Shown here: in pieces, positions 12,296 through 33,319 of the stretch
Position numbering within the stretch: the first letter of the stretch is position 1
Layout: every line of letters begins with the position of its first letter
Virus record (IMG/VR): IMGVR_UViG_3300030330_001955
Coordinates: 38,911-102,910 of that record
Reading direction: 5' to 3' (one strand)
Source: a virus
Lineage: Duplodnaviria; Caudoviricetes
DNA length: 64,000 nucleotides
Notes under the pieces: generated by a model
What the model saw: the letters and a program-made list of their open reading frames with translations, nothing else
Database searches by the model: none
What the model was told of the DNA's origin: nothing
Position numbers and translations under genes: made by a program

Positions 12296-12714
12296 TGGCA
12301 ACAGGAATAACAACAAACACAGTACAAACAGGTGGAGGCACAGTATCCGCAGGTACAAATATAACAGGATTTAGTGCTCCTGTAATGTTTGATAAGGGTG
12401 CTCAACAAAGTGCAGCTCCAAGAGTTATCAAAGCTCAGTTTGGAGACGGCTATCAACTAAGAATGGTTGATGGAATAAACAATACCCCTAGAAAATGGGC
12501 ACTTTCATTTGCCAATAGAACAAATGATGATATAGATAAACTTTATAAATTTTTCAATACTTTAGCAAGTGTCAGCACTTGTCAACTAACAATACCTAAT
12601 TCTGTTGATGGGGAAGAGACTGTAAAAGTTGTAATTAGCAACTATAATAAACAATATGCGTACGACGAATTTTATAGTCTTACCTGTGAAGCGGAAGAAG
12701 TATTTGAAGCATGA
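12295..12714 (+). CDS. Distal tail protein (lambda gpM-like)
   Basis: [14 protein letters not shown] motif and C-terminal EEVFE. Confidence 0.85.
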
Positions 12715-14333
12715 GTGATACAATATATACAGGTAATTCTGGTGGCAACTTGGTACAAGATATACAAAGCCAAGCGATTGCTAGTGGGTTTATTATTGTA
12801 TTCGAAATAGAACTACCTGATAGTAATATTGGTGGACATGGTATAGATAGATTATACTTTCACAATGGAGCAACAGGAACTTCAGACATTAGTTGGTATA
12901 GTCCTATAAATCTAGACAACTATGGTTCTACAACTAGAACAGATTATAGTGCTGCAACATATACAGCATTTCCTGTAGAAGCAGAGGGGTTCGAAACTAG
13001 GGGGACAGGAACTCTTCCAAGACCTCTTGTAAGATTTGCAAATGTTAATCAGTATTGGAATGCTTTTCTTTCAGACTATGATGATTTAGTTGGAGCAAAA
13101 GTAATTCGAAGAAGAACTTTAGAAAAGTATCTAGCAACTAGTGGTAAAACTGTAGCAAATGACCCTAACTGCCCTCCTGTAGAATTTAATAGAGATTGCT
13201 ACTATATAGAAAGAAAGACAAAAGAAACTCCACAGTTAGTAGAGTTCGAACTAACAAGTGCATTTGATGTTCAAGGAGTAAAACTACCTAGAAGAACTAT
13301 TATTGCAGCACGCTGTCCCTGGAAGTATAAAGATACAGACCAAGGCGGTTGTGACTGGCCAAAAGACAATAGATTTACTATTAGTGGTACAGAACATACT
13401 TTATACTTTGATAAAGACGATACTCAAATTACAGAGGCAAGTAACTTAGCAAGTGCAAGTACAAACGAATATACATACTGGGGCAGACAAGATGTTTCTA
13501 GTAATAGAACTACAAATTTATACTTAGGTAAAAGCTATGCTGTAAATGACTATGTTGAATATGAAAGACCTGTTGGAAGTATGTTCAAGATAGATAGAAT
13601 ACAAAGAACAAGTGCAAATGTAGTACAAATAACTTTTGATTCTAGTAGCGATGCAGCAACATTCTCTACTACGGCAGGAGAAGATTTTATTTGTATAAAA
13701 GGAATAAGCACAGAGGCTGCAAACCATAAAAATGTACCCCTACATGTAACAGGAGTAAGTGGAGCAGTAGTAACAGTAGAAACTGACGATAGTTTTACAG
13801 GCGACATTCAAGATGCTGATGATGGAATAGGTTTTGCACAAGCAACTCGTAGAACTTTATATCAATGTATTACTGCACATACATTAAGTACTAGTGATAG
13901 TCTTGATGATATAATTAGACCAACTAATATATCATACTGGCAGTTTGGAGATGTTTGTGGAAAAAGATTAGACTCTTGTGCTTGTAGATTTGGATTCAAT
14001 CCTACAAGTCAAGGAGTAGTTACTCATGTTGTGCCTGATAATACAGGTAGTGACGCAGGAAAAGGAGCAGGATATACTTCAACTCCTACTGTAACAATCT
14101 CTGGAGGCGGGGGTAGTGGCGCTACAGCCACCGCTATAAGGTCAAGTGGACAAATAATAGGATATACTGTAACAAATGGAGGGAGTGGATATACAACTAT
14201 ACCAACTGTTACTGTATCAGGAGGAAACCCAACTAGAGCTGCAAGTCCAGTTGCAGTTGTAGGTAATTTAAAAGGGAACAAAAGAAATGTTGCGCTACCA
14301 TTTGGAGGATTCCCAGGAGCAAGTTTATACTAA
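12711..14333 (+). CDS. Tail tip protein (lambda gpL-like) with inserted domains
   Basis: [24 protein letters not shown]...C...DVCGKRL.SC..RF and terminal PFGGFPG. Confidence 0.88.
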
Positions 14334-15034: not shown

Positions 15035-15900
15035 GAAAAGTTTATTTAGAAGGTATACTAGGGCAAAAATATGGGGAGGAATGGACTCTTAATGTTGCCT
15101 CGCCCGCAGAAGCACTTACAGCTATTATGGCACAGCGCCCTGGCATGAAACAGTTTCTAGCAGAATCAGAAGGTATACAAGGCTATGAAGTTTTAATAAA
15201 TGATGAGAGTATTACTAGCGAAGCAGAGTTAGTTTTAAATGAACCAGGAATGACTCAGACCTACACTTTTGTTCCTGTAGTTGCAGGGTCAAAAAGTAAA
15301 GTTATGATGATGGTACTCGGTGTTACACTTATTGCTGTAACAGGAGGTTTTGGAGCTGCATTTGTCCCTGGATTTATGGGAGGAGCAGTAGCAGGTGGAG
15401 CAGCAGTAGGAACAGCTTCGGGTTTAACAGGTGCAGCACTGACTTCGGCAATATCAGCAGGAACAGTAACAGCTGCAGGAACTTATACAGTAGCAGGAGC
15501 AGCTGCGGCTATGGGTACTAGTTCAGCTGCAATACTTGCAACATCAGCCGCAGGAAGCATGGGAGTAGGACTACTATTAGCAGGTGTAGCTTCAATGCTT
15601 ATGCCTGAACCACCAGAAGGTTCTGGAGCAGAATCAGCACAAAACTATTTATTCTCAGGCCCAGTTAATAATGTAAAACAAGGTGGCCCAGTTCCTCTTG
15701 TTTATGGGAGAGCAATAGTAGGTTCAACAACTATTTCGGGGTCAGTATATTCAACAACTTCAAGAGAAAAAGTATCAAGTACTAGAGCACTAGTAGGTAT
15801 ATCAAACTTTAGACAAGGCGGGTCAACTTTTGGACAAAATGAGAACACAGGTCAAAATCAACAAGTACCTGTTACACCACCAGGAACAGTAATACCATGA
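15031..15900 (+). CDS. Tail assembly protein (lambda gpI-like)
   Basis: N-terminal ubiquitin-like domain, long Gly/Ala hydrophobic stretch, N..KQG.PVPLVYG..IVGS. Confidence 0.88.
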   Translation: MRKVYLEGILGQKYGEEWTLNVASPAEALTAIMAQRPGMKQFLAESEGIQGYEVLINDESITSEAELVLNEPGMTQTYTFVPVVAGSKSKVMMMVLGVTLIAVTGGFGAAFVPGFMGGAVAGGAAVGTASGLTGAALTSAISAGTVTAAGTYTVAGAAAAMGTSSAAILATSAAGSMGVGLLLAGVASMLMPEPPEGSGAESAQNYLFSGPVNNVKQGGPVPLVYGRAIVGSTTISGSVYSTTSREKVSSTRALVGISNFRQGGSTFGQNENTGQNQQVPVTPPGTVIP

Positions 15901-18900
15901 GTAAGTTAATACGAATAAAAGGATCTGGCGGAGGAAAAGGCGGAGGCGGAGAAACCTTTGAAGCCGATGATAATCTATTTTCTCGACAAAGCGCCGCGTT
16001 TGTAGATGCAATCGCAGAAGGCCCAATCAAAGGATTAGTATATGGCGATGCTTCAATTATCGTTGATGAACAACGTCTTCGTAATGTAAATCAATCTACA
16101 GGACTTGTATCATCTAAAACAAACTTCAAAAACTTTATTATGACAACAACAAAAGGTGAGGCTACACAAACGCCTGACCCAGAGTTCTTTTCAGACTTTC
16201 CTTCAGCAGCAATAACAGAAGAAAAGAACTCAGCAGTTCTTTTGGAAGGAGAGCCTCAGTTCTTCACTATTTCTAGTGGCACATTTGAAAAACAAAATGC
16301 AGACTATTTAAAAGTTACTATTTCTACAAATGGTATGAGTGCTATAACAAAGAAAGGAGATAATAAAGGAGACATAAAGGAAACAAAAGTATTCTTTAGA
16401 ATTGACTTAGTTTTTACAAATAATAGTGGAGCAACAATCACTAGAAATAAATTCAATACTGGATTTGTAGGAAAAGTAGGAAGTAAATACGCACATACTT
16501 TCGGATTCAATATTGAAAATGAAAAAGAGAATGAAGGAGTACTAGACTGGGCGATTAAAGTTACAAAACTAACTTCAAGTCCAAATAGCACAGAGACCAC
16601 AGAAGTTTCAAATGATATCTTTGTAGATAGCATTGAAGCAACTATTGCTGATAAGTTAGAATATCCTTATACTGCTTATGTTGCTGGTGTAATTGATGCA
16701 GAACAATTTAGTAGTATTCCTTCAAGAGGTTACGAGATAGATGGAAAAATTATTAGTATTCCTACTAATATGTTCCCTTGCGATTATAATGGTAGAAAGA
16801 TAACTGTAAACAGCGTTTCAGGAATTAGTGTAGGAACAGTTTTAAGTCAAACATTGACCGTAAGTAGTATTACTGCAGCAGGAAATGCTGATGATGGCTT
16901 TATAGCTACGGTTACACTTAGTGCAAATCACCAAGTTCCTAGTACTGAGACCTTTGAAGTAACAATCGCAGGAGTTACAAATGATACTGATTTTTATAAT
17001 GGCACATTTACTGCAACTTCTACTGGTGGTACAACTTTTACTTATCCACTTGCTACACCATTCAACGAATCCACAGGAGAGTTCAAAACACTAGGAAGCA
17101 CTACTGCAAGTGGTACAAAAACTGCCGCACTATTTACAGGTGGTATTGTTGATAAAATAGATGGAAGCACCCTTTATGTAAGAAACGTAGCGGCTCAAAA
17201 ACAAATAGTTGGAGGACTACTTACGTTTCCAGGAGGTACAACTAATGTAACTAATCTTAGTGGACAAATTTTTATTCCTGCTAATTATAGAAGACATGTA
17301 ACTACAGGTGTGATGCAAACTACTGAGCAAGACTGGGACGGAAACTTTTATGAGTCTTGGTGTAATAATCCAGCATGGGTATATAATGATTTAATTACTG
17401 ATAAAATTTATGGATTAGGAAACTATCTTGGGCAAACAGAAGTAAATAAATGGGAGTTATTCCAAATAGGTAGATACTGCGATGAACTCGTACCAGCAGG
17501 AGTAGATGCCGCAGACTTTTTAGCACTATTTACTACTGATGATAGTAATTATATTCCTAGTGGTAGTACAGGAACTCATGAGCCTAGGTTTAGTGCAAAC
17601 TTAGTTATTAACGGAAAGCAAGAAGCATATAAAGTACTCAATGATATAGTAGGGATATTTAGAGGTATGACCTACTGGTTAAATGGAGAAGCTTTTGTTG
17701 TACAAGATTCAGAAAAAGATCCTGTCTATCAATTCACAAATGCAAATGTAATAAACGGTACTTTCGCGTATGAAGGCACTCCTTTAAAAACTCGTATCAA
17801 TGCTTGTCAGGTTACTTGGAATGACCCTAACGATTATTACAGGCAAAGAGTAGAACATGTAGAACTTGAAGAAACTTTACAAAGAGACGATGAGTTTGTA
17901 AAACCAGATTCAGTTACAGCATTTGGTTGTACGTCTAGAGGACAAGCTAGAAGACTAGGTAAATGGAGACTTCTTACTAATAATTTACATACTAATACCG
18001 TTACATTTAGTACAGGTATTAACGCGGCATTTATTAAGCCAGGTGATATTATTCAAATCGTTGACCAACATAAAGATGGTAAGTCATGGGGTGGAAGAAT
18101 ATCAAGTGGTAGCTCAACTACCGCAATAAAAGTAGATAGAAAACCAACAGGATTCGGAGATACAAGTGTAGAGTCAGGATATGCAGTAGGCGACTATAGA
18201 CTCACAGCTTCTTTTGTAGGACATATTGCTTTACTCGCGCAGGATACTGCAACTATTGGTGGAGTAAACTATGTAAGAGGACAAGAGATACCAAATATAG
18301 CTTCAGAAGAAGCAGCAGCAAAACAACAAGATGATAGTGGTGATATTGTCTTTATACAATGGAGTGCATACACTCATACAGAAACAAGAACTTTAAATGC
18401 CGTATCAAATAGTGGTAAAACTCTAACTGTTTCTCAAGCCTTTACTACTGCTCCCGCAGAAGACCAAATATGGATATTATCTAGACCTAGTTTACAAACT
18501 GGAAAAACAAAACAGGAAGCTAAATTATTCAGAGTATTGGCTATGGTGGAAGAAGAAGTTGGTAAATTCGAAATCACAGGTTTAGAATATAATGCTACAA
18601 AATTTGATGCAGTAGATAAAAATGAAGCGATATCAGAATACAGAACAATTAACTTACCAAATTCTTTTAGTACTGTTCCTACTGTAAATAACGTACATGC
18701 CTTTGGAACAAAAGAACCAAGAATAGGTGATAATACTTATATAAATGTTTTAAATGTAAACTGGGATAATGCAAAAAATGATGATGGAAGTATGTATAAC
18801 TTTGTTAGAGGATACGAAGTACATTACTCCAAAGACAATGTAAAATTTATAAATGCAGGATTATTCCATGGTACTGAAGCAGATATTGTAGGAGCTATAA

Positions 18901-21881
18901 CTGGCACTTACTTTTTTAGAGTCTATACTATTAGTATGCAGGGTAAAAAATCTGCACCTGCATTATTAACTAAAACTATCGACTTTGCTTCTCTAATGGA
19001 TATAGAAGGCACAGTTGGTAACGGGGATATGATAATCCCACTAACAGGTAGAATTAACTCAGAATTTAATATAAATACAAGTAGTGGTCTCGTTAGCTTT
19101 ACACCTTCTACTAATTTTACTTACACTAATAACATAGCAAATATAGAAATAAGTAGCCAAGCAAATCTAGACTTTAGCGGATTAGCAAATAGTGGAATAG
19201 GCTATGTTTACTTTGACCATTCAGTTGGTGGGACAAATAACTTCAAAGCAATAGCACATGATAGCACGTCCGACCAGTTCTTTCCTGTAGGTGGAAATGT
19301 TTTCCAAACAGGAACAGGAACTATAACTTCTGCAGGAAATACTAGAACACTTACAGGTAACGGTACAAACTGGAGTACTGCATTAAAGAAACATGACGTT
19401 CTTAAAATTACAAAAGATAGTGTAGATTACTATGTTAGAGTCGATGAAGTAGTAAGTGATACAAGTGTAATTCTTAGAAAAGTTTTAAGTCCAAGTTTAA
19501 CAAACAATGCTTATTCATTCCCTACTTTCTCAGTAGAATATGCTTCTGCAACAAGTGGTGGTATAAGAGATACTATCATGGGAGAGGTTACAAAATCATC
19601 TGATGGCAGTTCTTATAGCCTAGTACAATTTGGTACAAGTAGAGGGGAAGCAGGCTTTAGTGTATTTGGAACTAATGAATCTCATGGATTCACAGCACCA
19701 AATAATGGACAAATTAGTCAAAGTGATTATACCGCATATGTAAATGATTACACAGTTTCAAAAGGCTCAACCCAATATACATTTGCTTCTAGTGGCACAG
19801 CTGCAAATACTTATAATGTAACTGTATCTGCAGTTACAGGATTCTCAGGAACTAGTGCAGTTAATATTGGCACAAATAATAGTCAAGCAAGAATTACTAT
19901 TGATGATAACTCACTAGATAGTGTTACAGCTGCAACAGCTACTCTTTCTTTTACAGAAAACGCAACAGGAAATACAATTTCAACAAGAGTTCTTTCTTTT
20001 ACAAAACAAACTGCAGGTGCAGCTGGTGCTGATGGTGCTGATGGACAAGATGGGCAAGACGGAGCAGACGGTCAAGACGGCTCAGCTGGTGTAAGCGCAG
20101 CAGCAATAAAATTAGTTCCAAGTTCACAAGCTATACTATTTGACCAAGCAGGAAGTGAAAGCACAACTATTACTTTTACAACTGATGTTCAAAATGTTAC
20201 TTCACCAAACTATGAGTTTTTAGTTGATGATGTAAGTAAGCAAAATGGCACAACTGCTACATTTACTTTATCTGATAGTGATGAGCCAACAGTAGGAAAT
20301 CTTAAAAAAGTTTTAGTTAAAGTTAGAAGTGGCAGTACTTCAGGAACAGTACTAGCAAGAGACACAGTAACAATTTATGGTGTTAAAGAAGGTTCTGATG
20401 CATATACTGTAATTCTTTCTAATGATGCACATACTCTTCCAACTACAAATGCAGGAACAGTAACTTATACAGGCTCAGGAACAGATGTTAGAGTATTTAA
20501 AGGTAGTAGTGCACTAACACATACTACAGGAACACCATCAACAGGACAATTTAAAGCAGTAGCTCAATCAGCAACAAATATCGTAGCGGGTAGTAGAAGT
20601 ACTGTAACAAAAACAACTACAAATGATACAGCTAGATTTGCAAACGCAAGTAGTTGTAGTGCAGATACAGCAGAGATTGAGTTTAGTGTAAACTGTGAAA
20701 ATTTACAAACAATAATAAAATCACAAACATTCAGTAAATCTAAACAAGGTACAGATGGTCAAGATGGACAAGATGGTCAAGATGGACAAGATGGTCAAGA
20801 TGGTCAAGATGGAGAAGATGGAACAAATGGAGCTAATGGATTAAGAACCGTACAAGGCTACTTATACTATGAAAAGACAACTAGTGGAGCACCAGGAGCA
20901 CCAAGCGGAAATACTTATACTTTTTCTACTGGACTTGTAACAGGAAGTGGAATTAACGATAGTGGAACTACTAACTGTTGGAAAAACTCTCCAAGAACAC
21001 AAGACGCTACAAGCACAAATCAGTATTGGATAGTTAGATACTTTGGAACAGAAAGTTCTGCAAATGCTTCAACTATAAGTGTAACTTATAGCAATGTAAC
21101 ACAGCATGCTAGCTTTACTGGAGTTGTAACATTTAGTGGTGGTACTTTACAAGATAATAGCGGTAATTCATATGATACTTCTACAGCTATCACAGCAAGT
21201 CAAGTTATAAATCATATTGGGGGCGCAAATACAACCACAATTGATGGGGCTGTAATTACTACAGGAACACTAAATGCAAACAGAATAGTAGCAAATAGTA
21301 TTGATATTGCAGGTAAATCAATTGCAAATAGTTTAGGAGTCTTAAAAAGAACAATCACTGATAGTAGTGATATTTTTAATTATACTGAGTTAAATAGAAG
21401 TGCTTTTGATGGTAGAGTACAAGATGGCAATGGACCACCTCATATATCAAACACAAATTCTGGTCCAAGTAATACAACTTCTAATCCACAAATATTTGCA
21501 GGTACTTCTATACTAGGCAATAGTCCACTAATGACTTTACAATATACTACTCATAATTGGGGAAGTGGGACAAAGCCTTTTGTATTTGAATTTGTAGGAA
21601 CTGTAAACGGTTCTACTTCAGATGAAACAGAAACAGTAGTTGCACTTGTTGTTAGAGAAACAACTAGTGCTACAAACTATACAAGTAATAGTCCAAGTTC
21701 TTATAAAGCTAGTAGTAGAGAAAGTGCTAGTGGAAGCTCTTCTTTTGGAGTACAAAGACTAGTCGTAGAGTGTGAGTTATCACCAAATACTTCATACTAT
21801 GCTTGGCTATTTGTAGGAGGAGAACAAGGTATCACTAGACTATCTGATGCAACAATAGAAATAAGAGGATTAAATATATAA
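15897..21881 (+). CDS. Host-specificity central tail fibre (lambda gpJ-like)
   Basis: AIAEGPIKGL, YPYTA, NNPAW, YCDELV, GCTSRGQARRLGKW motifs; collagen-like linkers in the C-terminal third. Confidence 0.92.
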   Translation: MSKLIRIKGSGGGKGGGGETFEADDNLFSRQSAAFVDAIAEGPIKGLVYGDASIIVDEQRLRNVNQSTGLVSSKTNFKNFIMTTTKGEATQTPDPEFFSDFPSAAITEEKNSAVLLEGEPQFFTISSGTFEKQNADYLKVTISTNGMSAITKKGDNKGDIKETKVFFRIDLVFTNNSGATITRNKFNTGFVGKVGSKYAHTFGFNIENEKENEGVLDWAIKVTKLTSSPNSTETTEVSNDIFVDSIEATIADKLEYPYTAYVAGVIDAEQFSSIPSRGYEIDGKIISIPTNMFPCDYNGRKITVNSVSGISVGTVLSQTLTVSSITAAGNADDGFIATVTLSANHQVPSTETFEVTIAGVTNDTDFYNGTFTATSTGGTTFTYPLATPFNESTGEFKTLGSTTASGTKTAALFTGGIVDKIDGSTLYVRNVAAQKQIVGGLLTFPGGTTNVTNLSGQIFIPANYRRHVTTGVMQTTEQDWDGNFYESWCNNPAWVYNDLITDKIYGLGNYLGQTEVNKWELFQIGRYCDELVPAGVDAADFLALFTTDDSNYIPSGSTGTHEPRFSANLVINGKQEAYKVLNDIVGIFRGMTYWLNGEAFVVQDSEKDPVYQFTNANVINGTFAYEGTPLKTRINACQVTWNDPNDYYRQRVEHVELEETLQRDDEFVKPDSVTAFGCTSRGQARRLGKWRLLTNNLHTNTVTFSTGINAAFIKPGDIIQIVDQHKDGKSWGGRISSGSSTTAIKVDRKPTGFGDTSVESGYAVGDYRLTASFVGHIALLAQDTATIGGVNYVRGQEIPNIASEEAAAKQQDDSGDIVFIQWSAYTHTETRTLNAVSNSGKTLTVSQAFTTAPAEDQIWILSRPSLQTGKTKQEAKLFRVLAMVEEEVGKFEITGLEYNATKFDAVDKNEAISEYRTINLPNSFSTVPTVNNVHAFGTKEPRIGDNTYINVLNVNWDNAKNDDGSMYNFVRGYEVHYSKDNVKFINAGLFHGTEADIVGAITGTYFFRVYTISMQGKKSAPALLTKTIDFASLMDIEGTVGNGDMIIPLTGRINSEFNINTSSGLVSFTPSTNFTYTNNIANIEISSQANLDFSGLANSGIGYVYFDHSVGGTNNFKAIAHDSTSDQFFPVGGNVFQTGTGTITSAGNTRTLTGNGTNWSTALKKHDVLKITKDSVDYYVRVDEVVSDTSVILRKVLSPSLTNNAYSFPTFSVEYASATSGGIRDTIMGEVTKSSDGSSYSLVQFGTSRGEAGFSVFGTNESHGFTAPNNGQISQSDYTAYVNDYTVSKGSTQYTFASSGTAANTYNVTVSAVTGFSGTSAVNIGTNNSQARITIDDNSLDSVTAATATLSFTENATGNTISTRVLSFTKQTAGAAGADGADGQDGQDGADGQDGSAGVSAAAIKLVPSSQAILFDQAGSESTTITFTTDVQNVTSPNYEFLVDDVSKQNGTTATFTLSDSDEPTVGNLKKVLVKVRSGSTSGTVLARDTVTIYGVKEGSDAYTVILSNDAHTLPTTNAGTVTYTGSGTDVRVFKGSSALTHTTGTPSTGQFKAVAQSATNIVAGSRSTVTKTTTNDTARFANASSCSADTAEIEFSVNCENLQTIIKSQTFSKSKQGTDGQDGQDGQDGQDGQDGQDGEDGTNGANGLRTVQGYLYYEKTTSGAPGAPSGNTYTFSTGLVTGSGINDSGTTNCWKNSPRTQDATSTNQYWIVRYFGTESSANASTISVTYSNVTQHASFTGVVTFSGGTLQDNSGNSYDTSTAITASQVINHIGGANTTTIDGAVITTGTLNANRIVANSIDIAGKSIANSLGVLKRTITDSSDIFNYTELNRSAFDGRVQDGNGPPHISNTNSGPSNTTSNPQIFAGTSILGNSPLMTLQYTTHNWGSGTKPFVFEFVGTVNGSTSDETETVVALVVRETTSATNYTSNSPSSYKASSRESASGSSSFGVQRLVVECELSPNTSYYAWLFVGGEQGITRLSDATIEIRGLNI
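20016..20090 (+). repeat. Collagen-like G-x-D triplet repeat 1 in gpJ
   Basis: GAAGADGADGQDGQDGADGQDGSAG. Confidence 0.85.
20748..20840 (+). repeat. Collagen-like 9-bp tandem repeat 2 in gpJ
   Basis: (GGWCAAGAT)n encoding GTD(GQD)6GEDGTNGANG. Confidence 0.9.
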
Positions 21882-23139: not shown

Positions 23140-24672
23140 ATGGCACAAGTAATTAAAATTAAAAGAAGTACCAGTACTTCCGCACCAGGTTCACTGGTAG
23201 CTGGTGAGTTAGCGTATTCTTCGGATAGTAATAAGCTATTTATTGGTCACCCTTCCTCAGAAGCTGTAACAGCTATCGGTGGTGCGTTGTATGTAAACAT
23301 GTTAGACCACTCTGCTGGAACACTAACAGCAAGTTCAGCTATTATAGTTGATACTAACAGTAAGATTGACCAATTAAAATCAGGTAATATAGTAGTTACT
23401 GGTTCAAGTAATACTATTTCTACATCTTCAGGTAATTTAACAATTGCACCAGCGGGTACATTAGTAGTTACTCATGGCGGTACAGTTGATTTATCTGGAC
23501 AAGCAAACTCACTAACATTACCAGACAACCAAGCGTCTGCGTTAGATATTAACGAAGGCGGCACTTCATATCTTAAATTTACAACTACAAACTCTGGAGA
23601 GAAAGTTGTTGTCGGTAAAGATATGGACACAGGAACAATCAATGTTACTAGCGGTAATTTATTAGTAGGAACAGATAAACTTACAGTAGCATCAGGTACA
23701 GGTAACACAGTAATAAAAGGTACTGCAAATATACAAGGAGCAGCAGACCTAGATTCTACACTTAATGTAGATGGAGCTACAACTCTTAATGGAGCTGTAA
23801 CTTTAGGTGACGCTTCAGCAGATGCAATTACAGTTAGTGGTACAGCAACTTTTACCCCATCAGCAGACTTTGATGGTGGCTTTTCAGTAGCAGGTTCACA
23901 GACTGTTGATATGGGCTCAAACAGAGTTCAGAATGTAGCAACTCCTACATCAAGTACTGATGCAGCAAACAAAGGTTATGTAGATAGTGTAAAACAAGCA
24001 CTAGATATCAAAGACTCCGTTAAATTAGGTACAACTGCAAACTTAAATGCAACTTACAATAATGGTAACGGAACACTTACAATGGACGCAACTGGAGTTG
24101 TGACTATTGACGGTGTAGCAACTGCTCTTAATGATAGAGTCTTAATTAAAGACCAAAGTAGCGCAGTTGAAAATGGTATCTATACTGTATCAACAGCAGG
24201 TGCTGTTGGTGTAGCAGGAGTATTTACAAGAGCCTCAGATGCTGACGCTAACTCTGAAGTTACAGGAGGTTTGTTTACCTTTATTGAAGCAGGTTCTGTT
24301 AATGCAGATAATGCTTTCGTTTTAACTTCAGTAACAGGAACAGCAACTCTTGGTACAAGTGCTCTAACATTTACTCAGTTCTCAGGAGCTGGTCAGGTTA
24401 CAGCAGGAAATGGTCTTGCTAAATCTGGTAATACTTTAAGTGTAAATGTAGACGATAAAACAATCGAACTAAGTTCAGATACTGCTAGAATCAAAGGAAT
24501 AACAGCAACTGCAAATGGTGATTTACTATTTGGAGCAAACGGTTCTAATGGAGGTTATTCAAGACTAGCAATCGGAACTTATGATTCAACAAACAGCGTA
24601 GGTCAATTACTTCAAGTTGGAGCATCTTCAACAGTAACTTGGTCTAATACATTAGATGGAGGCACATTCTAA
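23140..24672 (+). CDS. Tail fibre segment (Mtd-N-like N-terminus)
   Basis: IKIKRS...L..GELAY start, NVA.P....DAANK.YVD motif, C-terminal LDGGTF. Confidence 0.75.
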   Translation: MAQVIKIKRSTSTSAPGSLVAGELAYSSDSNKLFIGHPSSEAVTAIGGALYVNMLDHSAGTLTASSAIIVDTNSKIDQLKSGNIVVTGSSNTISTSSGNLTIAPAGTLVVTHGGTVDLSGQANSLTLPDNQASALDINEGGTSYLKFTTTNSGEKVVVGKDMDTGTINVTSGNLLVGTDKLTVASGTGNTVIKGTANIQGAADLDSTLNVDGATTLNGAVTLGDASADAITVSGTATFTPSADFDGGFSVAGSQTVDMGSNRVQNVATPTSSTDAANKGYVDSVKQALDIKDSVKLGTTANLNATYNNGNGTLTMDATGVVTIDGVATALNDRVLIKDQSSAVENGIYTVSTAGAVGVAGVFTRASDADANSEVTGGLFTFIEAGSVNADNAFVLTSVTGTATLGTSALTFTQFSGAGQVTAGNGLAKSGNTLSVNVDDKTIELSSDTARIKGITATANGDLLFGANGSNGGYSRLAIGTYDSTNSVGQLLQVGASSTVTWSNTLDGGTF

Positions 24673-24885: not shown

Positions 24886-25218
24886 ATGGCATCAGCATTT
24901 AAATCAGCAACATCAGCAAGTGTAGGTACTAGTTTAACAACTATATACACTTGCCCAAGTAGCACTACGGTAACTATCATAGGCTTGTATCTTTGTAACC
25001 AATCAGGTGGACAAATAGAAGCCTCATGTGAATTTTTTGACAATAGTGCGAATGCCCACGTAGGGCTTATATCTTCTGCACCAATTCCTAGTGGCTCCAC
25101 TTTAGTATTAGTAGGAGGCGACGGAAAAGTCGTATTAGAAGCAGGAGATATAATTAAAGTACAATCAAACGTTGCAAGCTCGATAGATGTAGTTCTATCG
25201 TATCTGGAGCAAACATAA
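24886..25218 (+). CDS. Small virion beta-sandwich protein
   Basis: MA..FK, IYTCP and KVVLEAGD...DVVLSYLE motifs, frequent in aquatic phage fibre modules. Confidence 0.6.
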   Translation: MASAFKSATSASVGTSLTTIYTCPSSTTVTIIGLYLCNQSGGQIEASCEFFDNSANAHVGLISSAPIPSGSTLVLVGGDGKVVLEAGDIIKVQSNVASSIDVVLSYLEQT

Positions 25219-27665
25219 TGGCACTCATAGGTAAACAATTAGCATTAGTTGCAACACTAGAAGCTAATGCAGTAGGTACTACTGAAATAGTATCTAATTC
25301 AATAACTGCTAGTGAAGTAGCTGCGAACGCTGTTGGGACTTCTGAAATTGCCGAAAATGCTGTTGGTACTTCAGAAATAGCAACAAATGCTGTTGGAGCT
25401 GCACAACTACAAGCTGCAGCGGTCACAGCAGTAGCAGATAACTCTATTGATGCAGCGGCTATAGCAGCAAACTCAGTAGACTCAAGTGAACTTGTAACAG
25501 GTTCTATTGATGCAATACATATTGGATCGGGACAAGTTACAGATGCAAAACTAGCAATAAATTCAGTAATCACAGCAAAAATAGCAGACGAAGCTGTAAC
25601 TACAGGTAAACTTGCAGATAACTCTGTTACTTCAGCAAAGATAGTAAATGGAACTATTGTAACAGCAGATCTTGCAGATAACTCCATTACTTCAGCAAAG
25701 ATAGTAAATGGAACTATTGTATCAGGAGATATCGCAGCAAATACAATAGCAACAGGAAACATAGCAGACAATGCAGTAAATGGTACAAAAATAGCATCAA
25801 ATAGTATTTTAACTAGACACATTGATGACGACCAGATTACTACTGACCAGATAGCAGCGAATACCATTGCTACTGGCAATATTGCAGACAATGCAATAGA
25901 TTCAACAAAGATAGCACAAAACTCTATCTTAACCAAACATATAGATGACGGACAAGTAGGAACAAGCCAACTAGCTGCCGATGCAGTTACAGGGGCAAAA
26001 TTAGCAGATGATTCTGTAGATTCAGAACATTTTGTAGACGGTAGTATAGATACCGCTCACCTTTCAGCAGACGCAGTAACAGCCGCTAAGTTAGCAGATA
26101 ACGCAGTTGTTACCGCAAATATTGTTGCAGGGAGTGTAGATACTACAGAAATAGCAGATAACGCGATTACTGCAAATAAAATTACTACTGGTGTTGTTGA
26201 CGCAACACATATTGCAGCAAATGCTGTATCAGCTGCTGAACTTAAATCAGATGCTCTTGGCGGTCAAACATTCACAGGTAATGTTACATTATCAGGAAAC
26301 TTAACAGTTAATGGTACTACAACTACATCTGCATCAACAAACACAGTTATTACAGATAAGTTAATCGAACTTGCTAATGGACAATCAGGTTCTCCATCAG
26401 GAGACTTAGGTATTGTTATGGAAAGAGGAAGTTCTAACAATGCTTTCATAGGATTTGATGAAAGTGAAGATAAGTTTAGAGTAGGTACTGGTACATTTAC
26501 AGGTTCTAGTACAGGTGACTTAACTATTACAACAGGAACTCTTTTAGCGAATGTTGAAGGTAACTTAACAGGTACAGCAAGTGCGATAGCAGATAACTCT
26601 GTTACTTCTGCTAAAATAGTAAATGGTACTATTGTATCAGCAGACATAGCTGCAAACACGATTGCCACAGGCAATGTAGCAGATAACGCTATAAATGCTA
26701 CTAAGATAGCAGCGAGTTCTATAACTAATAATGAACTTGCAAACAACTCAGTTACTTCAGCAAAAATAGTAAATGGAGCAGTTAACACAGTAGACTTAGC
26801 AGACGATGCAGTAACAGCAGCTAAATTAGCAGCCAACGCAGTCGTCTCTGGAAGTATTGCAAATGGAACTATTGTAACAGCAGACTTAGCTGATAACTCA
26901 GTTACTTCAGCAAAAATATCAGCAGGAACTATTGTAAATGGTGACTTAGCTAATAACTCTATCAATGCAAGTAAGATTGTAGCAGGAAGTGTTACAACAG
27001 CAGAGATAGCAGCAAACACAATTGCTACAAGTAACATTGCAGATAACGCAGTAGATAGTACAAAGATTGCTCAGAACTCTATATTAACAAAGCACATTGA
27101 TGATGGACAAGTTAATACTGCACAATTAGCAGGTAACTCTGTAACAGCCGCTAAAATACAAAATGATGCAGTTGGAGCTGACCAGATAGCAGCCAATGCT
27201 GTTTCAACTTCTGAACTCAAATCAGATGCTCTTAGTGGACAAGTTATGACAGGAGCAGTAGGATTTAGTGGTGTAGTAAATGCACAGAATACTCTAGGTA
27301 TTCAAGATAGTTCACCACCACAGAAGTTCCATATAGATGAAGTAGCTGGGCTAGATGTTAATAGCGGTACAAGTAGTTCAACAGCACAGTTCACACTAGA
27401 TTCATTTAGTGCATCAGTATTTAGAACTGCTAAGTATACAATATCTATAAAGAATACAACAGACTCTGATTATCAAGCATTAGAAATTTTAATGTTCCAC
27501 GATGGAACAACTGTATACTTAACACAGTACGCTTCTATTTTTGATAATGGAGCACAAGCAACTTTTGACGCAGACATAAGTGGTGGCAACGTAAGGTTAC
27601 GAGTCACTCCTGCTTCAACAGACAATATGACTTATAAAGTCATAAGGCAAACAATCGAGGTTTAA
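25218..27665 (+). CDS. Tail fibre with decapeptide repeats (xAVTxAKIAD-type)
   Basis: Two long arrays of 10-aa repeats (NSVTSAKIVN / GTIVTADLAD), each ending ELKSDAL; globular middle and C-terminal domains. Confidence 0.75.
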   Translation: MALIGKQLALVATLEANAVGTTEIVSNSITASEVAANAVGTSEIAENAVGTSEIATNAVGAAQLQAAAVTAVADNSIDAAAIAANSVDSSELVTGSIDAIHIGSGQVTDAKLAINSVITAKIADEAVTTGKLADNSVTSAKIVNGTIVTADLADNSITSAKIVNGTIVSGDIAANTIATGNIADNAVNGTKIASNSILTRHIDDDQITTDQIAANTIATGNIADNAIDSTKIAQNSILTKHIDDGQVGTSQLAADAVTGAKLADDSVDSEHFVDGSIDTAHLSADAVTAAKLADNAVVTANIVAGSVDTTEIADNAITANKITTGVVDATHIAANAVSAAELKSDALGGQTFTGNVTLSGNLTVNGTTTTSASTNTVITDKLIELANGQSGSPSGDLGIVMERGSSNNAFIGFDESEDKFRVGTGTFTGSSTGDLTITTGTLLANVEGNLTGTASAIADNSVTSAKIVNGTIVSADIAANTIATGNVADNAINATKIAASSITNNELANNSVTSAKIVNGAVNTVDLADDAVTAAKLAANAVVSGSIANGTIVTADLADNSVTSAKISAGTIVNGDLANNSINASKIVAGSVTTAEIAANTIATSNIADNAVDSTKIAQNSILTKHIDDGQVNTAQLAGNSVTAAKIQNDAVGADQIAANAVSTSELKSDALSGQVMTGAVGFSGVVNAQNTLGIQDSSPPQKFHIDEVAGLDVNSGTSSSTAQFTLDSFSASVFRTAKYTISIKNTTDSDYQALEILMFHDGTTVYLTQYASIFDNGAQATFDADISGGNVRLRVTPASTDNMTYKVIRQTIEV

Positions 27666-27666
27666 A

Positions 27667-27888
27667 ATGGGACAAAAATTAGATTTTAATATTGAAGAAG
27701 CTGGTATCAAGATTGATGGTGCTGATGTTATTGACGCAAGTAGAAACTTCGAAGGAAGTGTAGCATCAGATAGGCTTGGTAGTGGAACAATCGCAAAAGC
27801 AAGATTACCATTCACTATTTCTACAACTGCTCCCACAGGAGTAGGTAGTACTAATGATGGTCACATCTTCTTCGTATACTCAACATAG
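27667..27888 (+). CDS. Short fibre adaptor
   Basis: SGTI..ARLP and ISTTAP....DGHIFFVY trimer/adaptor-type motifs. Confidence 0.55.
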   Translation: MGQKLDFNIEEAGIKIDGADVIDASRNFEGSVASDRLGSGTIAKARLPFTISTTAPTGVGSTNDGHIFFVYST

Positions 27889-27896
27889 GAAGATAA

Positions 27897-30446
27897 ATGG
27901 CGATATTTGTAAATGATGGCGGAACACTCCGCACCATCAGGTTTATAGCTGTAAACGACAATGGCACGATTCGTCGTGTCAATGAAGTTTATGTAAACGA
28001 CGGAGGGTCTCTAGAGGGCCCTTTTAGTGCTGTACACTCTACAACTCGCTCCACTAATACTCAAACTACTTTTGTATCGGGTACACAAGAAACTTCATTT
28101 GCTACAACTTGTACATTTGAAACAAACCGTGCCACTGATAGTATATTCTTAACAGTTAGAGCTACTACAACTGTCTTTGATACTACTAGAAGTACAACTA
28201 CTACATTTAATACAACCAGAAGTACAACTACAACGTTTAATACAACTACAAACTTTACAACTACAACTACTTTTAATACTACTAGAAGTACAACTACAAC
28301 GTTCAATACAACTACAAACTTTACAACTACAACCACATATAATACTACTAGAAGTACAACTACTGTATTTGATTCTACAACTACGTATACAACAACTACT
28401 ACCTTTGATACTACTCGAAGTACTACAACTGTATTTAATACGACTACGAACTTTACAACTACAACTACTTTTGAAACTACTAGAAGTACAACTACTGTAT
28501 TTAACACAACTACAAACTTTACTACAACGACTACGTATAACACGACGAGGTCAACTACTACTGCGTACGATACAACTACAACGTATACCACAGCTTACGA
28601 TACAACAATCGAGACAAGTAGAAACACAGGCTTTACTAATATAACTTCTGCAAGTACAAATACATCATTTAGTACTGATTACCAAACAGCGACAAGTAGA
28701 AATACAAATACATCATTCTCAACCACATATGGCTCTGGTACAACTAGAAATACGCAGAATATAGTATCAACAAGTTATGGCTCTAGCACAACTAGAAATA
28801 CAGGTAATATAGTATCAACAAGTTATGGGTCAGGTACAAGTAGGAACACAACTAATATAGTATCGACAGCTTATGGGTCAGGTACAACTAGAAATACAAA
28901 TACATCATTTAATACAAGTTTTACAAATAATACAAATACAAATACAAACACTTGTGCAATTGTGAGTACGAACACTACTACAGGTGGAACAAACAATACT
29001 AATACTTGTGCGATTGTATCAACAAATACAGGTACAGGTGCTACAAATAATACGAATACTTGTGCGATTGTAAGTACGAATACTGGTACAGGTGCTACAA
29101 ATAATACAAATACTTGTGCGATTGTATCAACAAATACTGCTCGTATTACTACATTCTTAGTTCAGTCTGGAGTAATAATCGAGCCAGAACTTGGAGCTAT
29201 ACCTCGTATGACTAATACGAGTATATCCACATCACTTGGTGCAAACAACACAAATACTTGTTTTATAGCAAGTACAAACACGACTACAGGTGGTACAAAT
29301 AATACGAATACTTGTTTTACAGTAAGTACAAACACTACTACGGGTGGTACAAATAATACAAATACTTCCTTCATAGCAAGTACAAATACTAATACAGGTG
29401 GAACAAACAATACTAATACTTCGTTTATAGTAGCTTCAGCATACGCTACAAATACTAGTAGAACAACTGATAATGTAATTGTATCTACTTCTTATAATAC
29501 AAGTACAAGTAGAAATACTAACACTTCTAACTCTACTGCATACGACACAAGTACAAGTAGAAATACTAACACTTCTAATTCTACTGCGTATGATACATCT
29601 ACAAGTAGAAATACAAATACTTCTAACTCTACTTCTTATAATACGAGTACAACTAGAATAACTGATAATGTAATTGTATCTACTACATATAACACAACTA
29701 CAAGTAGAAATACAACTGTATCAGCGATTACTTCTTTCAATACAAATACAACTAGGAGCACAAATTATGAAACTGCCTTTGAAACCTCACGATCAAGCAG
29801 TAGGGCTACAGGAACATCAAGAAGTACAACAACAACATTTGAGACAAATACAACTACAGCAAGTAGTAGAGCAACAGCTACAAGTAAATCGACTACTACT
29901 ACATTTGATACAAATACAACTACAGCAAGTAGTAGGGCAACATCAACTTCGAAGAATACAACAACAACTTACGCAACAACTCTAGGTACACTTACATCAA
30001 GAGCAACAGCAACCTCGAAGGATACAACTACTACATTTAATACAAATACAACTACAGCAAGTAGTAGAGCAACAGCGACTTCGAAGAATACTACTACTAC
30101 TTTTGAAACTAATACTTCAACTGCGAGCAGTAGGGCAACTGCAACAAGTAAAGCAACTACAAGTACATTTGAAACTGATAGGTCAACTACCACTACATTT
30201 GAAACTAGTAGTTCAACAGGTTCAGTATTTAACACTACAAGGTCTACGACCTCCACGTTTGATACTACAAGGGCAACAGATACAACAATTACAACTGATC
30301 ATCTGACAACTATTGCGACTGCAACAGGAACTCAGATTTTTGAAAGAATAACCGCCTCTCAGGCAGGAACTATATTTGATACAGAAGTAGCAAGTATAGA
30401 AGACTTTGGTGCTTCCTACTGGGACGGCTCACAATGGAGCGATTAG
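27897..30446 (+). CDS. Thr/Ser/Asn-rich mucin-like fibre protein with mirror-symmetric repeats
   Basis: 849 aa; repeat periods 10-22-16-18 | apex | 18-16-22-10; VNDGG-like x3 at the N-terminus; SD-like agga; synonymous variation among repeats supports coding. Confidence 0.8.
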   Translation: MAIFVNDGGTLRTIRFIAVNDNGTIRRVNEVYVNDGGSLEGPFSAVHSTTRSTNTQTTFVSGTQETSFATTCTFETNRATDSIFLTVRATTTVFDTTRSTTTTFNTTRSTTTTFNTTTNFTTTTTFNTTRSTTTTFNTTTNFTTTTTYNTTRSTTTVFDSTTTYTTTTTFDTTRSTTTVFNTTTNFTTTTTFETTRSTTTVFNTTTNFTTTTTYNTTRSTTTAYDTTTTYTTAYDTTIETSRNTGFTNITSASTNTSFSTDYQTATSRNTNTSFSTTYGSGTTRNTQNIVSTSYGSSTTRNTGNIVSTSYGSGTSRNTTNIVSTAYGSGTTRNTNTSFNTSFTNNTNTNTNTCAIVSTNTTTGGTNNTNTCAIVSTNTGTGATNNTNTCAIVSTNTGTGATNNTNTCAIVSTNTARITTFLVQSGVIIEPELGAIPRMTNTSISTSLGANNTNTCFIASTNTTTGGTNNTNTCFTVSTNTTTGGTNNTNTSFIASTNTNTGGTNNTNTSFIVASAYATNTSRTTDNVIVSTSYNTSTSRNTNTSNSTAYDTSTSRNTNTSNSTAYDTSTSRNTNTSNSTSYNTSTTRITDNVIVSTTYNTTTSRNTTVSAITSFNTNTTRSTNYETAFETSRSSSRATGTSRSTTTTFETNTTTASSRATATSKSTTTTFDTNTTTASSRATSTSKNTTTTYATTLGTLTSRATATSKDTTTTFNTNTTTASSRATATSKNTTTTFETNTSTASSRATATSKATTSTFETDRSTTTTFETSSSTGSVFNTTRSTTSTFDTTRATDTTITTDHLTTIATATGTQIFERITASQAGTIFDTEVASIEDFGASYWDGSQWSD
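28128..30275 (+). repeat. Nested coding tandem repeats (30, 66, 48, 54 bp units) in two mirrored arms
   Basis: Read from translation: TTRSTTTTFN; TTRSTTTVFNTTTNFTTTTTFE; TTRNTxNIVSTSYGSG; TNNTNTCAIVSTNTGTGA; counterparts in reverse order after the apex. Confidence 0.85.
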
Positions 30447-30629
30447 ATGGCACAAAAGCAATCAGCAGAACGAAAAACAAAGATTACACCAGAGTATGTA
30501 AATAATAAACTAGAACAAATATTATCTGCTTTATTTGATACTTTGGAAGAAAACGAAGATAGAATTAAACATATGGAAGCTCAAGTTCATAAACTTACAG
30601 CTGAGGTTAGAAATGGCAAAGCCGAATAA
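30447..30629 (+). CDS. Small coiled-coil protein (possible fibre chaperone)
   Basis: Abuts the fibre stop codon; heptad pattern. Confidence 0.55.
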   Translation: MAQKQSAERKTKITPEYVNNKLEQILSALFDTLEENEDRIKHMEAQVHKLTAEVRNGKAE

Positions 30630-31512
30630 TTTACAATCTCTTTCCATAAATGAAGAACTAGGAGACTTACCAACTCACTTCATGAAATCGGGCAGTACTA
30701 TGCCACCAAAAGAAAGATTGAATGAGTTATATGAGTTTCAACAAGAGGTAGTTCCAAAACAATATTGGGGACTAAATGTAGAGTATGACCTTTGGTATAA
30801 TACTAATGAACTCTCTACTGTTAGAACTTGGCTATATACTGATTTTTTAGGTAAAGGAATATTTTTTAGAGTAAACTCAGTAAAAATAAACGATAGACTA
30901 TTTAACAGAATAGCACAAGATGAATACTTAGAGATAGATGAAGATAGAATCTCTAAGATTGTAAAGAGTTTAGAAAACAAGTATACGCTTCAAAACTATA
31001 CAGGAGAGTACTATGAGAAAGTTGCATTTCCACCAGGAAGCAACTTACTTAATAAAGTAGTTAATTGGAAGACTTTAGACGGTCTGATAGAAGAGGGGTT
31101 TGTTATAAAACCTCACCCAATAACTGCTCATTTGTTTATAGCAAAAATGAGGCAACGATATGGAAAGCATAGAATATTAGGTAAAAAGTTAAGTGGCCAC
31201 GATATTCTCTGTAATGCAAAAGAGATAGGATTCTGCCCTAATAGTCAAATGGGTGTAGAAGCCATACTACTAGGAAAGAAGATAAGGTCTTTTGCAATAC
31301 CAAGAACTGCTAGAGAGAAAGCACACTTAACATATGAAGCTATTTACCAAGCAATAGCAGGTAGTGATACTACCCTTAGATTAAAAAGACTTTTATCAAG
31401 CAAATATTCAGGAATTATATTTGCATTTGACGAGGACAGGAAGGCAAGAACTGAAAATTATTTTAATAACTTTTGGGATTTTACACTTAGACCTTCAAAA
31501 TTAGAAACATGA
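30613..31512 (+). CDS. KpsC/KpsS-like GT-B glycosyltransferase (putative CMP-Kdo/ulosonate transferase)
   Basis: VIKPHP and NSQMGVEAILLGKKI match the KPHP and NSxxGxEAxxxGK signatures; likely start 30613 after SD gaggt. Confidence 0.65.
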   Translation: MAKPNNLQSLSINEELGDLPTHFMKSGSTMPPKERLNELYEFQQEVVPKQYWGLNVEYDLWYNTNELSTVRTWLYTDFLGKGIFFRVNSVKINDRLFNRIAQDEYLEIDEDRISKIVKSLENKYTLQNYTGEYYEKVAFPPGSNLLNKVVNWKTLDGLIEEGFVIKPHPITAHLFIAKMRQRYGKHRILGKKLSGHDILCNAKEIGFCPNSQMGVEAILLGKKIRSFAIPRTAREKAHLTYEAIYQAIAGSDTTLRLKRLLSSKYSGIIFAFDEDRKARTENYFNNFWDFTLRPSKLET

Positions 31513-32519
31513 TTGATATAATATTATTCGTAGAAAAAATAAATCTTGAATACACACTCGCGTCGTTAGTGAATAAGACGGGGAATTATCGTGTCCATTT
31601 ATTTTTCCGCCCTGAACTACTCGATGAGTACGAATCAGACGGCAGATTAAAATGGATTTTAAGTCAATTTAGAGAAGTATATATCTATCAAACGCCTTGG
31701 TCTTTTAGAAAAACTCCACATAGAATGGCTAGAATTTTATTACAGTTTAAAGAGCATTGGAAAGATAAGCAACCTAAAGGACTACCTATTGAAAGAGTCC
31801 TAATATCTGTTGCGGGTAGTAGACTATTCTTAGGAGACTTTGATAAAGATATTCCTAAGTTAAATCAAATGAATGGTAATACAGTTTACTTCAGTAGAAA
31901 GTTTAAGTATGAAAACCACCCCGCTTATAAAAACTACTATACTATGATAGGATTGCAGAATCCTCCTATCCCAGTAGAGAAAAGATATTTTAAAGATAAA
32001 AGAGACACAGAGTATCTATTTATAGACTGGACAAAATTTAAAGATTTAAATAATAATGTATTATTCTTCCCAAATGGTAAGGCAACTAGAACTGACCCAT
32101 CATTACGAGATGTTGATAATTACATAAATTCTGCAAAAACACATACTATGTATGACTACTTTATAAATGGAACTAATGGAGTAAAATCTGGTTTCATGCC
32201 ACTATATTTTAATATGGGTCTAGATAAACTCATTATTATGGAAGCAATAGGAGCAAAAGACTGCATCAATCATCAGATTGCAATGAGAAAAGCTTTCTCT
32301 ATAAATATAGATGGAGAGATTCTTTGGTCAGATTGGGAAGGAATGTCTACACTTCTTGGATTGTCTGTGCCATGGGACTTATGGGCTCAACAGTTAGATA
32401 ACATACCTCTTAACATGAGATGGCAAATATTCAATGAGAAAATTTTAATGAAAGCTGAGAAGCAAAAGAAACATGTACGTAAAGTAGTGGAAGCAGGGTA
32501 CTTGTTAGGTAAGATATAG
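31509..32519 (+). CDS. Hypothetical protein, possibly divergent GT-A (GT8-like) fold
   Basis: TLASL...YRVHLF and ERVLISVAGSRLFLGDF resemble GT8 core strands but DxD is missing; ATGA-coupled. Confidence 0.4.
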   Translation: MIDIILFVEKINLEYTLASLVNKTGNYRVHLFFRPELLDEYESDGRLKWILSQFREVYIYQTPWSFRKTPHRMARILLQFKEHWKDKQPKGLPIERVLISVAGSRLFLGDFDKDIPKLNQMNGNTVYFSRKFKYENHPAYKNYYTMIGLQNPPIPVEKRYFKDKRDTEYLFIDWTKFKDLNNNVLFFPNGKATRTDPSLRDVDNYINSAKTHTMYDYFINGTNGVKSGFMPLYFNMGLDKLIIMEAIGAKDCINHQIAMRKAFSINIDGEILWSDWEGMSTLLGLSVPWDLWAQQLDNIPLNMRWQIFNEKILMKAEKQKKHVRKVVEAGYLLGKI

Positions 32520-32650: not shown

Positions 32651-33319
32651 TTAAAGGTTTAAGACTTCTTCTTTTAAATCCGACAGCATAACCCAATTTA
32701 TAATCCCGTTGCGGGACATTTCTAGTGCATACTCTCTTTCTTCGAGAGCATTATGCGGGATTTCATCAACTCTATTTTTAGGAAGGTGCCAGCTAAAAGG
32801 ATTTTGTGCACCTACTTTGAAGGGAGCTTGCTTTGCAAAGAAGTCAAATCCAATGATTGTTAGACTCTTCCAAACCCAAGCCTTTTTGATAAGCCAAAGA
32901 AGTACGATAAAACCATTGGAAGGTCTACCGAGTAGTGAGGCATCTTGGTAATTAAACTCTTCGTAGATTTCGAGGAGTTCTGCATCAGAAAACATTGTGC
33001 AATATGGAATATCTATATCCGCCACTCTTGGCTTAGTTAGATACATTCTTGTACGATTTAGTAAGATGGGCATGTTTCCCCATTCTTTTGGAAACTTTTT
33101 ATAGAACTCGTTTCGTAAAAATCCAGTTGCCCATATACTAAACTTATCACCAATACTATCATAGTATTTGCTTGTTGGCGCTCCTCTTCCCATACGAATT
33201 ACTATATCGTGTGAATCAATAAATGCGCCTTTCTTATAATTTAATAATTCCACAGAGTTACCTACTAGGCATACATTCTTATTTTCAAGAAGTTTACTTA
33301 TTCGTTCAAATTCGCTCAT
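32651..33319 (-). CDS. GT29 sialyltransferase-like protein
   Basis: Sialylmotif L (VCLVGNS..L....G..IDSHD.VIRM), S-like (PSNG...IIGFDFF) and VS (HNALEE). Confidence 0.8.
   Translation of the reverse strand: MSEFERISKLLENKNVCLVGNSVELLNYKKGAFIDSHDIVIRMGRGAPTSKYYDSIGDKFSIWATGFLRNEFYKKFPKEWGNMPILLNRTRMYLTKPRVADIDIPYCTMFSDAELLEIYEEFNYQDASLLGRPSNGFIVLLWLIKKAWVWKSLTIIGFDFFAKQAPFKVGAQNPFSWHLPKNRVDEIPHNALEEREYALEMSRNGIINWVMLSDLKEEVLNL

Follow-up and report, generated by a model that had tools for sequence, protein, structure and literature searches.

The stretch of DNA analysed here (the window, 64,000 nucleotides in length) corresponds to positions 38,911 to 102,910 of the IMG/VR virus record IMGVR_UViG_3300030330_001955, a record of 102.9 kb whose source is an uncultured marine T5-like siphovirus. 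The last fibre-like gene of its T5/lambda-like tail module is an open reading frame (ORF) at 27897-30446 on the plus strand, and this gene, referred to below as the hairpin-fibre gene after the structure that we propose for its product, is the subject of the present analysis. The predicted protein of 849 amino acids contains 309 Thr, 108 Ser and 95 Asn, which makes it 36% Thr, and carries many N-x-S/T triplets. Other residues are conspicuously rare, with three Pro, seven Cys and two His, the latter at positions 47 and 802, outside the repeats. The gene and its parts are as follows, where i+j denotes the sum of the positions of two facing residues.

27887..27892, plus strand: ribosome-binding site AGGAAG, 4 nucleotides 5' of the ATG, read from the sequence.
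27897..30446, plus strand: gene for the 849-residue Thr-rich protein, the proposed hairpin fibre, stop codon included; from the ORF list and translation, with dozens of independent contigs, viral and metagenomic, carrying intact full-length homologues.
27897..28067, plus strand: N-terminal module, residues 1-57, three tandem hairpin units of about 15 residues (VNDGG-T-L/I-R), defined by homologue identity; proposed virion anchor.
28068..29180, plus strand: outward arm, residues 58-428, with 10-mers at 76-105, 22-mers at 106-237, 16-mers at 266-345 and 18-mers at 348-419; from tandem repeats, unit listing and mirror alignment with the return arm.
29181..29207, plus strand: apex turn, residues 429-437 (E-P-E-L-G-A-I-P-R), placed by the register i+j=866, Pro enrichment and the turn motif.
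29208..30320, plus strand: return arm, residues 438-808, with 18-mers at 450-521, 16/17-mers at 520-615, 22-mers at 634-765 and 10-mers at 760-799; from tandem repeats, unit listing and reversed complementarity to the outward arm.
30321..30443, plus strand: conserved C-terminal domain, residues 809-849 (F-E-R-I-T ... S-Y-W-D-G-S), with 83% mean identity and outside the mirrored zone.

The repeats of the two arms stand in mirror order. Tandem Repeats Finder reports DNA periods of 30, 66, 48 and 54 nucleotides, a unique centre, and then periods of 54, 48, 66 and 30 nucleotides; the protein accordingly passes through units of 10, 22, 16 and 18 residues, the apex, and units of 18, 16, 22 and 10 residues. 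Listing the units individually gives equal copy numbers in the two arms, at about 3-4, 6, 5-6 and 4 for the four block types. The local-period profile mirrors itself at i+j=862, where 175 of 208 possible matches are realized, compared with only 95 for the best direct shift, and this mirrored profile is far beyond chance. A DNA-level palindrome was considered as the source of the symmetry and rejected: the gene contains just one inverted repeat, of 18 nucleotides and attributable to chance, and the coding direction is the same for the two arms.

An initial annotation of this DNA, made by a model from the letters and the translated ORFs, had described repeat blocks in palindromic order around a short apex, with partner blocks roughly matched in copy number. 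Both descriptions hold, and the Arg and Cys markers lie where that reader had listed them. The nearly constant position sums that it reported for mirrored markers, 862 to 876, arose from pairing like with like (Arg with Arg, Cys with Cys); the true register joins Arg/Lys to aromatic residues and lies at i+j=866, or 865 in the 16-mer block. Partner blocks, which had been taken as merely different in sequence, prove to be mirror-complementary; the 18-mers, and likewise the 10-mers, also show direct homology. Finally, the rule that all periods are even is correct for the window protein but does not extend to the family, in which homologues have units of 17, 19, 21, 31, 33 or 37 residues in one arm.

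The complementarity is visible at the level of single residues. Counted with no scoring scheme, the diagonal i+j=866 holds 30 pairs of an aromatic residue with Arg or Lys and not one aromatic-aromatic or basic-basic pair, compared with a median of one and a 99th percentile of 10 aromatic-basic pairs per diagonal. The remaining high diagonals echo the repeats and, unlike this one, include like pairs. A second register, which might have signalled edge-to-edge packing of several hairpins, was therefore discarded, as the candidates were just such echoes, displaced by +6 or by one repeat length. Alignment of the outward arm with the reversed return arm covers 304 positions with two one-residue shifts, and yields 37 aromatic-basic pairs without a single like pair. 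This alignment scores 111, against 49 for a control in direct orientation and 11-16 for shuffled controls. Within the 18-mer block, A-I-V lies opposite V-I-F, T-N-T opposite T-N-T and G-G opposite G-G. The aromatic/basic complementarity occurs only in the reversed orientation, which supports, as far as sequence can, the earlier proposal of a chain running out and back as antiparallel strands. A mirror register filled with complementary residues would be the expected mark of a chain that reverses at its tip, with its two segments antiparallel.

The hairpin fibre belongs to no Pfam, PHROG or NCBIfam family and matches no PDB chain at E<=1. Homologous-protein searches, whether queried by the full sequence or by residues 1-75, gave no match, nor did tblastn against GenBank phages, and a representative protein library contains the family only as fragments of 57-102 residues. 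Scanning of viral and metagenome contigs located 68 loci, from which 37 distinct full-length homologues of 624-3108 residues were extracted, all sharing the N- and C-termini of the window protein. They derive from many ocean metagenomes, Tara contigs among them. The longer homologues add block types of 28, 30/31, 32/33 and 37/38 residues, likewise mirrored in order. In these distal blocks, as in those of 16 and 18 residues, hydrophobic pairs take the place of aromatic-basic ones.

Length is shared equally between the arms throughout this family. The mirror sum S, obtained from the periods alone, equals the protein length n plus 13.3 ± 2.9 in all 37 homologues; since S-n is constant from 624 to 3108 residues, the arms are always equally long across a five-fold size range. 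This relation also served for a blind test on a homologue cut at the locus edge (L015), for which a full length of 3108 ± 3 residues was predicted and the record showed an open frame of 3108. The proximal 22-mer segments, measured between conserved junction motifs, exist in five states (149/119, 193/163, 237/207, 281/251 and 325/295 residues), which are separated by steps of 44 residues and retain a difference of 30 between the arms in 29 of the 29 proteins with both landmarks. Mirrored block lengths covary with r = 1.0 for the proximal and r = 0.998 for the distal blocks. The copy numbers of the two arms had been expected to co-evolve, and they do: the centre stays at the midpoint in the 37 homologues and mirrored blocks change length together.

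The largest homologue (L015/L017, from IMGVR_UViG_3300017909_005256) has 3108 residues, about 1500 per arm, with more than 30 22-mer units per side and a single Cys. A cross-arm lock by cysteine or metal was entertained as a general feature and abandoned, the cysteines being unmirrored in most relatives; L009 has none at all.

The pairing code is present in 37 of 37 homologues, each of which has between 21 and 90 aromatic-basic pairs and at most three like pairs. L063 contributes 90 pairs in a gapless run over 713 of its 739 arm positions, and the gapless run in L015 extends over 885 positions. Across the 8451 mirrored positions pooled from the homologues, 1056 of 1066 Arg/Lys residues lie opposite an aromatic residue, leaving 10 without such a partner, and like pairs number five against 1056 unlike. 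Gln is the second partner of Phe in the pooled pairs, and in divergent relatives the partners of coded pairs change jointly on both sides. Coded pairs are spaced by 4 or 6 residues, and 1054 of the 1056 share one parity. The face that bears them consists of 56% Thr, 19% aromatic and 13% basic residues; the other is composed of Thr, Ser, Asn, Ala and Asp, with no Arg or Lys and 0.2% Phe. Long beta-strands that run on without a break leave just such a pattern in sequence, an unbroken alternation of period two with the coded pairs confined to one face. Some partner units are unequal in length by a single residue (16/17, 18/19); there each unit displaces the register by one position, which implies a bulge in each unit and not a loss of pairing.

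The more distant homologues L052, L057, L063 and L067 carry the aromatic-basic code along practically the entire arm and have apex motifs of other kinds, Gly/Tyr-rich or acidic. In the window protein, the hydrophobic 16-mer and 18-mer blocks have the appearance of a distal insertion acquired later.

At the register of 866 the mirror centre is G433, flanked by E429 opposite R437 and P430 opposite P436. The mirror centre is enriched in Pro, Gly, Glu and Ile; 38 of the 53 internal prolines of the homologues fall within 20 residues of it, compared with 2.2 expected. A [DN]-P-E-x-G motif sits at the period-derived centre in most relatives. Pairing restarts within about 10-25 residues of the centre, so that the unique apex is a short loop, and in L063 and L067 coded pairing continues up to about 7-15 residues from the centre, leaving just a loop. 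Hypervariability of the apex, suggested at the outset, is found in part: no other unique region varies as much as the apex, which has 39% mean pairwise identity against 79% for the N-terminus and 83% for the C-terminus, but the turn motif is retained.

The N-terminal module also heads proteins of about 160-460 residues that end in other C-terminal domains (DUF6273, Gly_rich_2) and, occurring on many small proteins, it behaves as a portable anchor. Among cultured phages it finds just a weak match, a hypothetical protein of Pectobacterium phage ZF40. It is the sole part of the hairpin fibre that AlphaFold2 models as beta-hairpins, with a predicted local distance difference test score (pLDDT) of about 70.

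We consider it probable, and hold the view with some confidence, that the gene encodes a virion fibre made of one very long intrachain antiparallel beta-hairpin whose register is set by the mirror code. From an N-terminal anchor of about 57 residues, the chain would run outward for about 375 residues, turn back in a loop of five residues, flanked by Pro and with G433 at its centre, and return antiparallel in exact register, with residue i opposite residue 866-i. The return would bring the conserved C-terminal 41 residues to lie beside the N-terminal module at the fibre base. Cross-strand pairs of F/Y/W with Arg/Lys, sometimes Gln, lying on a single face against a background of Thr, would fix the register, and Thr, Ser, Asn and Ala would cover the opposite face. 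In the distal 18-mer block, the hydrophobic triplets and Gly-Gly pairs would replace the aromatic-basic code. The number of repeats would set the length, which could then change only by matched gain or loss in both arms, giving rise to relatives of 624-3108 residues with balanced arms. Fully extended, the window fibre would measure about 125 nm (375 pairs at 0.33 nm), and lengths within the family would range from roughly 90 to 500 nm. The likely role is that of a long accessory fibre that makes the first contact with the host.

Several considerations weigh against this interpretation. AlphaFold2, given the full length and a 12-sequence alignment, returned a pLDDT of 30.6 and a predicted template modelling score of 0.22; the central 191 residues reached a pLDDT of 31.6, and an ESM Atlas model of the window fibre sequence one of 0.47. 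A lone two-stranded ribbon of more than 100 nm with no hydrophobic core probably means that some higher-order packing is missing from the picture. The presence of the protein on the virion is something that we infer, and both the beta-ribbon and the assignment of its pairing to one chain would follow from sequence patterns. Furthermore, one homologue (L014) lacks a 19-mer in the return arm only, which implies either that perfect balance is not obligatory or that the contig is misassembled. It has 1134 residues against 1153 in the near-identical L003 and L032, and this difference of one 19-residue unit is either a tolerated bulge or a repeat collapsed in assembly.

A further difficulty is that a constant i+j is equally expected from the antiparallel pairing of two chains, and the main rival explanation is of this kind. 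The outward arm of one chain would pair with the return arm of another, producing a bipolar rod that is twice as long and has both kinds of terminus at each end. Such a rod satisfies the same constant-sum code and the same covariation of the arms, yet we consider it improbable. Against it stand the conserved turn motif at the mirror centre, with the 38 prolines gathered there, and the coded pairing of L063 and L067, which approaches so near the centre that only a loop remains. A covalently tethered partner, present at very high local concentration, should also out-compete a second chain, and a bipolar rod accords badly with a single N-terminal anchor of the type shared with small receptor-binding-like proteins.

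Explanations that dispense with pairing between the arms fare worse. Each arm could form its own beta-solenoid, or a triple beta-helix or spiral shaft, with the two lying side by side and the periods reflecting rung size. Repeats of 16-22 residues with Gly-rich stretches do resemble rungs, and Thr-rich flat faces are known from antifreeze solenoids. This arrangement is nevertheless very improbable, since the strict two-face pattern of period two persists for hundreds of residues without the turns that a solenoid needs, the 10-residue unit is too short for a rung (rungs have 12 or more residues), and shafts that lie next to each other give no reason to expect 99% of the basic residues to face an aromatic residue on a single diagonal; nor was any Pfam, PHROG, NCBIfam or PDB match found. 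We give slightly less credence still to a disordered, mucin-like and possibly glycosylated spacer or decoration in which the order of the repeats has no structural meaning. The Thr content, the abundance of Ser and Asn, the N-x-S/T triplets, the low-confidence structure predictions and a gene nearby with a GT29-type glycosyltransferase motif, conserved in the gene order, would all suit such a spacer. However, three prolines in 849 residues are unlike the Pro-rich composition of mucin-like regions, and a disordered chain requires neither the positional code, nor the two-face alternation, nor the covariation in arm length.

With the intrachain hairpin as the preferred reading, we lean cautiously towards a broader statement, namely that the family represents a natural, sequence-programmed beta-zipper: a single-chain two-stranded ribbon with between 260 and about 1500 residue pairs (about 90-500 nm extended), with an aromatic-cation register code on one face and a length that evolves by matched repeats, serving abundant marine siphoviruses as an ultra-long, ultra-thin capture line. 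If this is true, the architecture is without described precedent and contains continuous beta-strands hundreds of residues long with a readable pairing code; no description of such a fibre design was found in full-text searches of the literature or in the structure databases searched. It would also provide natural rules for beta-ribbons of defined length (aromatic opposite Arg/Lys/Gln, Thr opposite Thr, on one face) and explain how phages could adjust the reach of their fibres, between about 90 nm and perhaps half a micrometre, through paired changes in repeats. Such tuning bears on the capture of hosts in dilute seawater. Moreover, covariation in the sequences makes the structural claim directly testable where current structure predictors fail.

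The genes preceding the hairpin-fibre gene in the window include the following.

1390-3435, plus strand: protease-capsid fusion.
6153-7385: tube.
8261-12295: tape measure.
12711-14333: gpL.
15897-21881: gpJ-like protein.
23140-24672 and 25218-27665: two fibre proteins.

In the first of these, a Peptidase_S78 prohead protease and a Phage_capsid major capsid protein share one ORF of 681 residues. Ribonucleotide reductase genes lie further downstream of the hairpin-fibre gene, on the opposite strand, and the gene order around the latter is preserved in related loci wherever the contigs reach the neighbours. Between the gene for the 815-residue fibre protein and the hairpin-fibre gene lies an ORF of 73 residues, absent from the ORF list (M-G-Q-K-L-D ... 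H-I-F-F-V-Y-S-T; 27667-27888, plus strand). Its stop codon overlaps the AGGAAG of the hairpin-fibre gene and it ends 8 nucleotides before the ATG. At least 60 related loci have this small ORF at the corresponding position, with 49-99% identity, and its product may act as a connector or assembly factor.

Directly downstream are genes for proteins of 325 residues (30535-31512, plus strand) and 336 residues (31509-32519, plus strand), the order of which is kept in 16 of 16 viral-contig loci. Neither protein has a Pfam, NCBIfam or PDB match. The 325-residue protein matches phrog_26179, a PHROG family of unknown function, and in one Atlas cluster of look-alikes 14% of the members carry Capsule_synth (PF05159). 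The two products are candidates for fibre chaperones or glycosyltransferases. A protein of 222 residues, encoded at 32651-33319 on the minus strand, contains a partial GT29 (sialyltransferase-type) motif, with 33.2 bits against a cut-off of 23. Its gene is kept near the fibre gene in nine of the 16 viral loci, those that reach that far, and this proximity raises the question of whether the Thr/Ser/Asn-rich fibre is glycosylated.

The hairpin-fibre gene closes the tail module of a T5-like genome, a position that recalls pb1, the L-shaped side tail fibre of T5. The likeness does not extend to the proteins, as no homology to pb1 or to siphovirus side fibres was detected. Side fibres of the T5 pb1 type are built as parallel trimers whose C-terminal domains bind the receptor or act as chaperones, and their chains do not fold back.

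The closer comparison is with the needle at the tip of the T4 long tail fibre, formed by gp37. There the chains run out to the tip and return antiparallel, so that both ends are on the virion side (Bartual et al.; PMC9659904). The needle is homotrimeric and six-stranded, with repeated iron-coordinating His-x-His motifs and a globular head that bears receptor-binding loops (PMC9659904). What the hairpin fibre, as read from its mirror code, would have in common with this needle is the out-and-back principle alone. It has no sequence, Pfam or PDB similarity to gp37 and, with His at positions 47 and 802 only, no His-x-His metal sites. In place of a globular head the tip would be a loop of about 9-20 residues. 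The arms of the hairpin family comprise 260 to about 1500 residues, compared with some tens in gp37, and their register would be held by aromatic-basic pairs set in a matrix of Thr.

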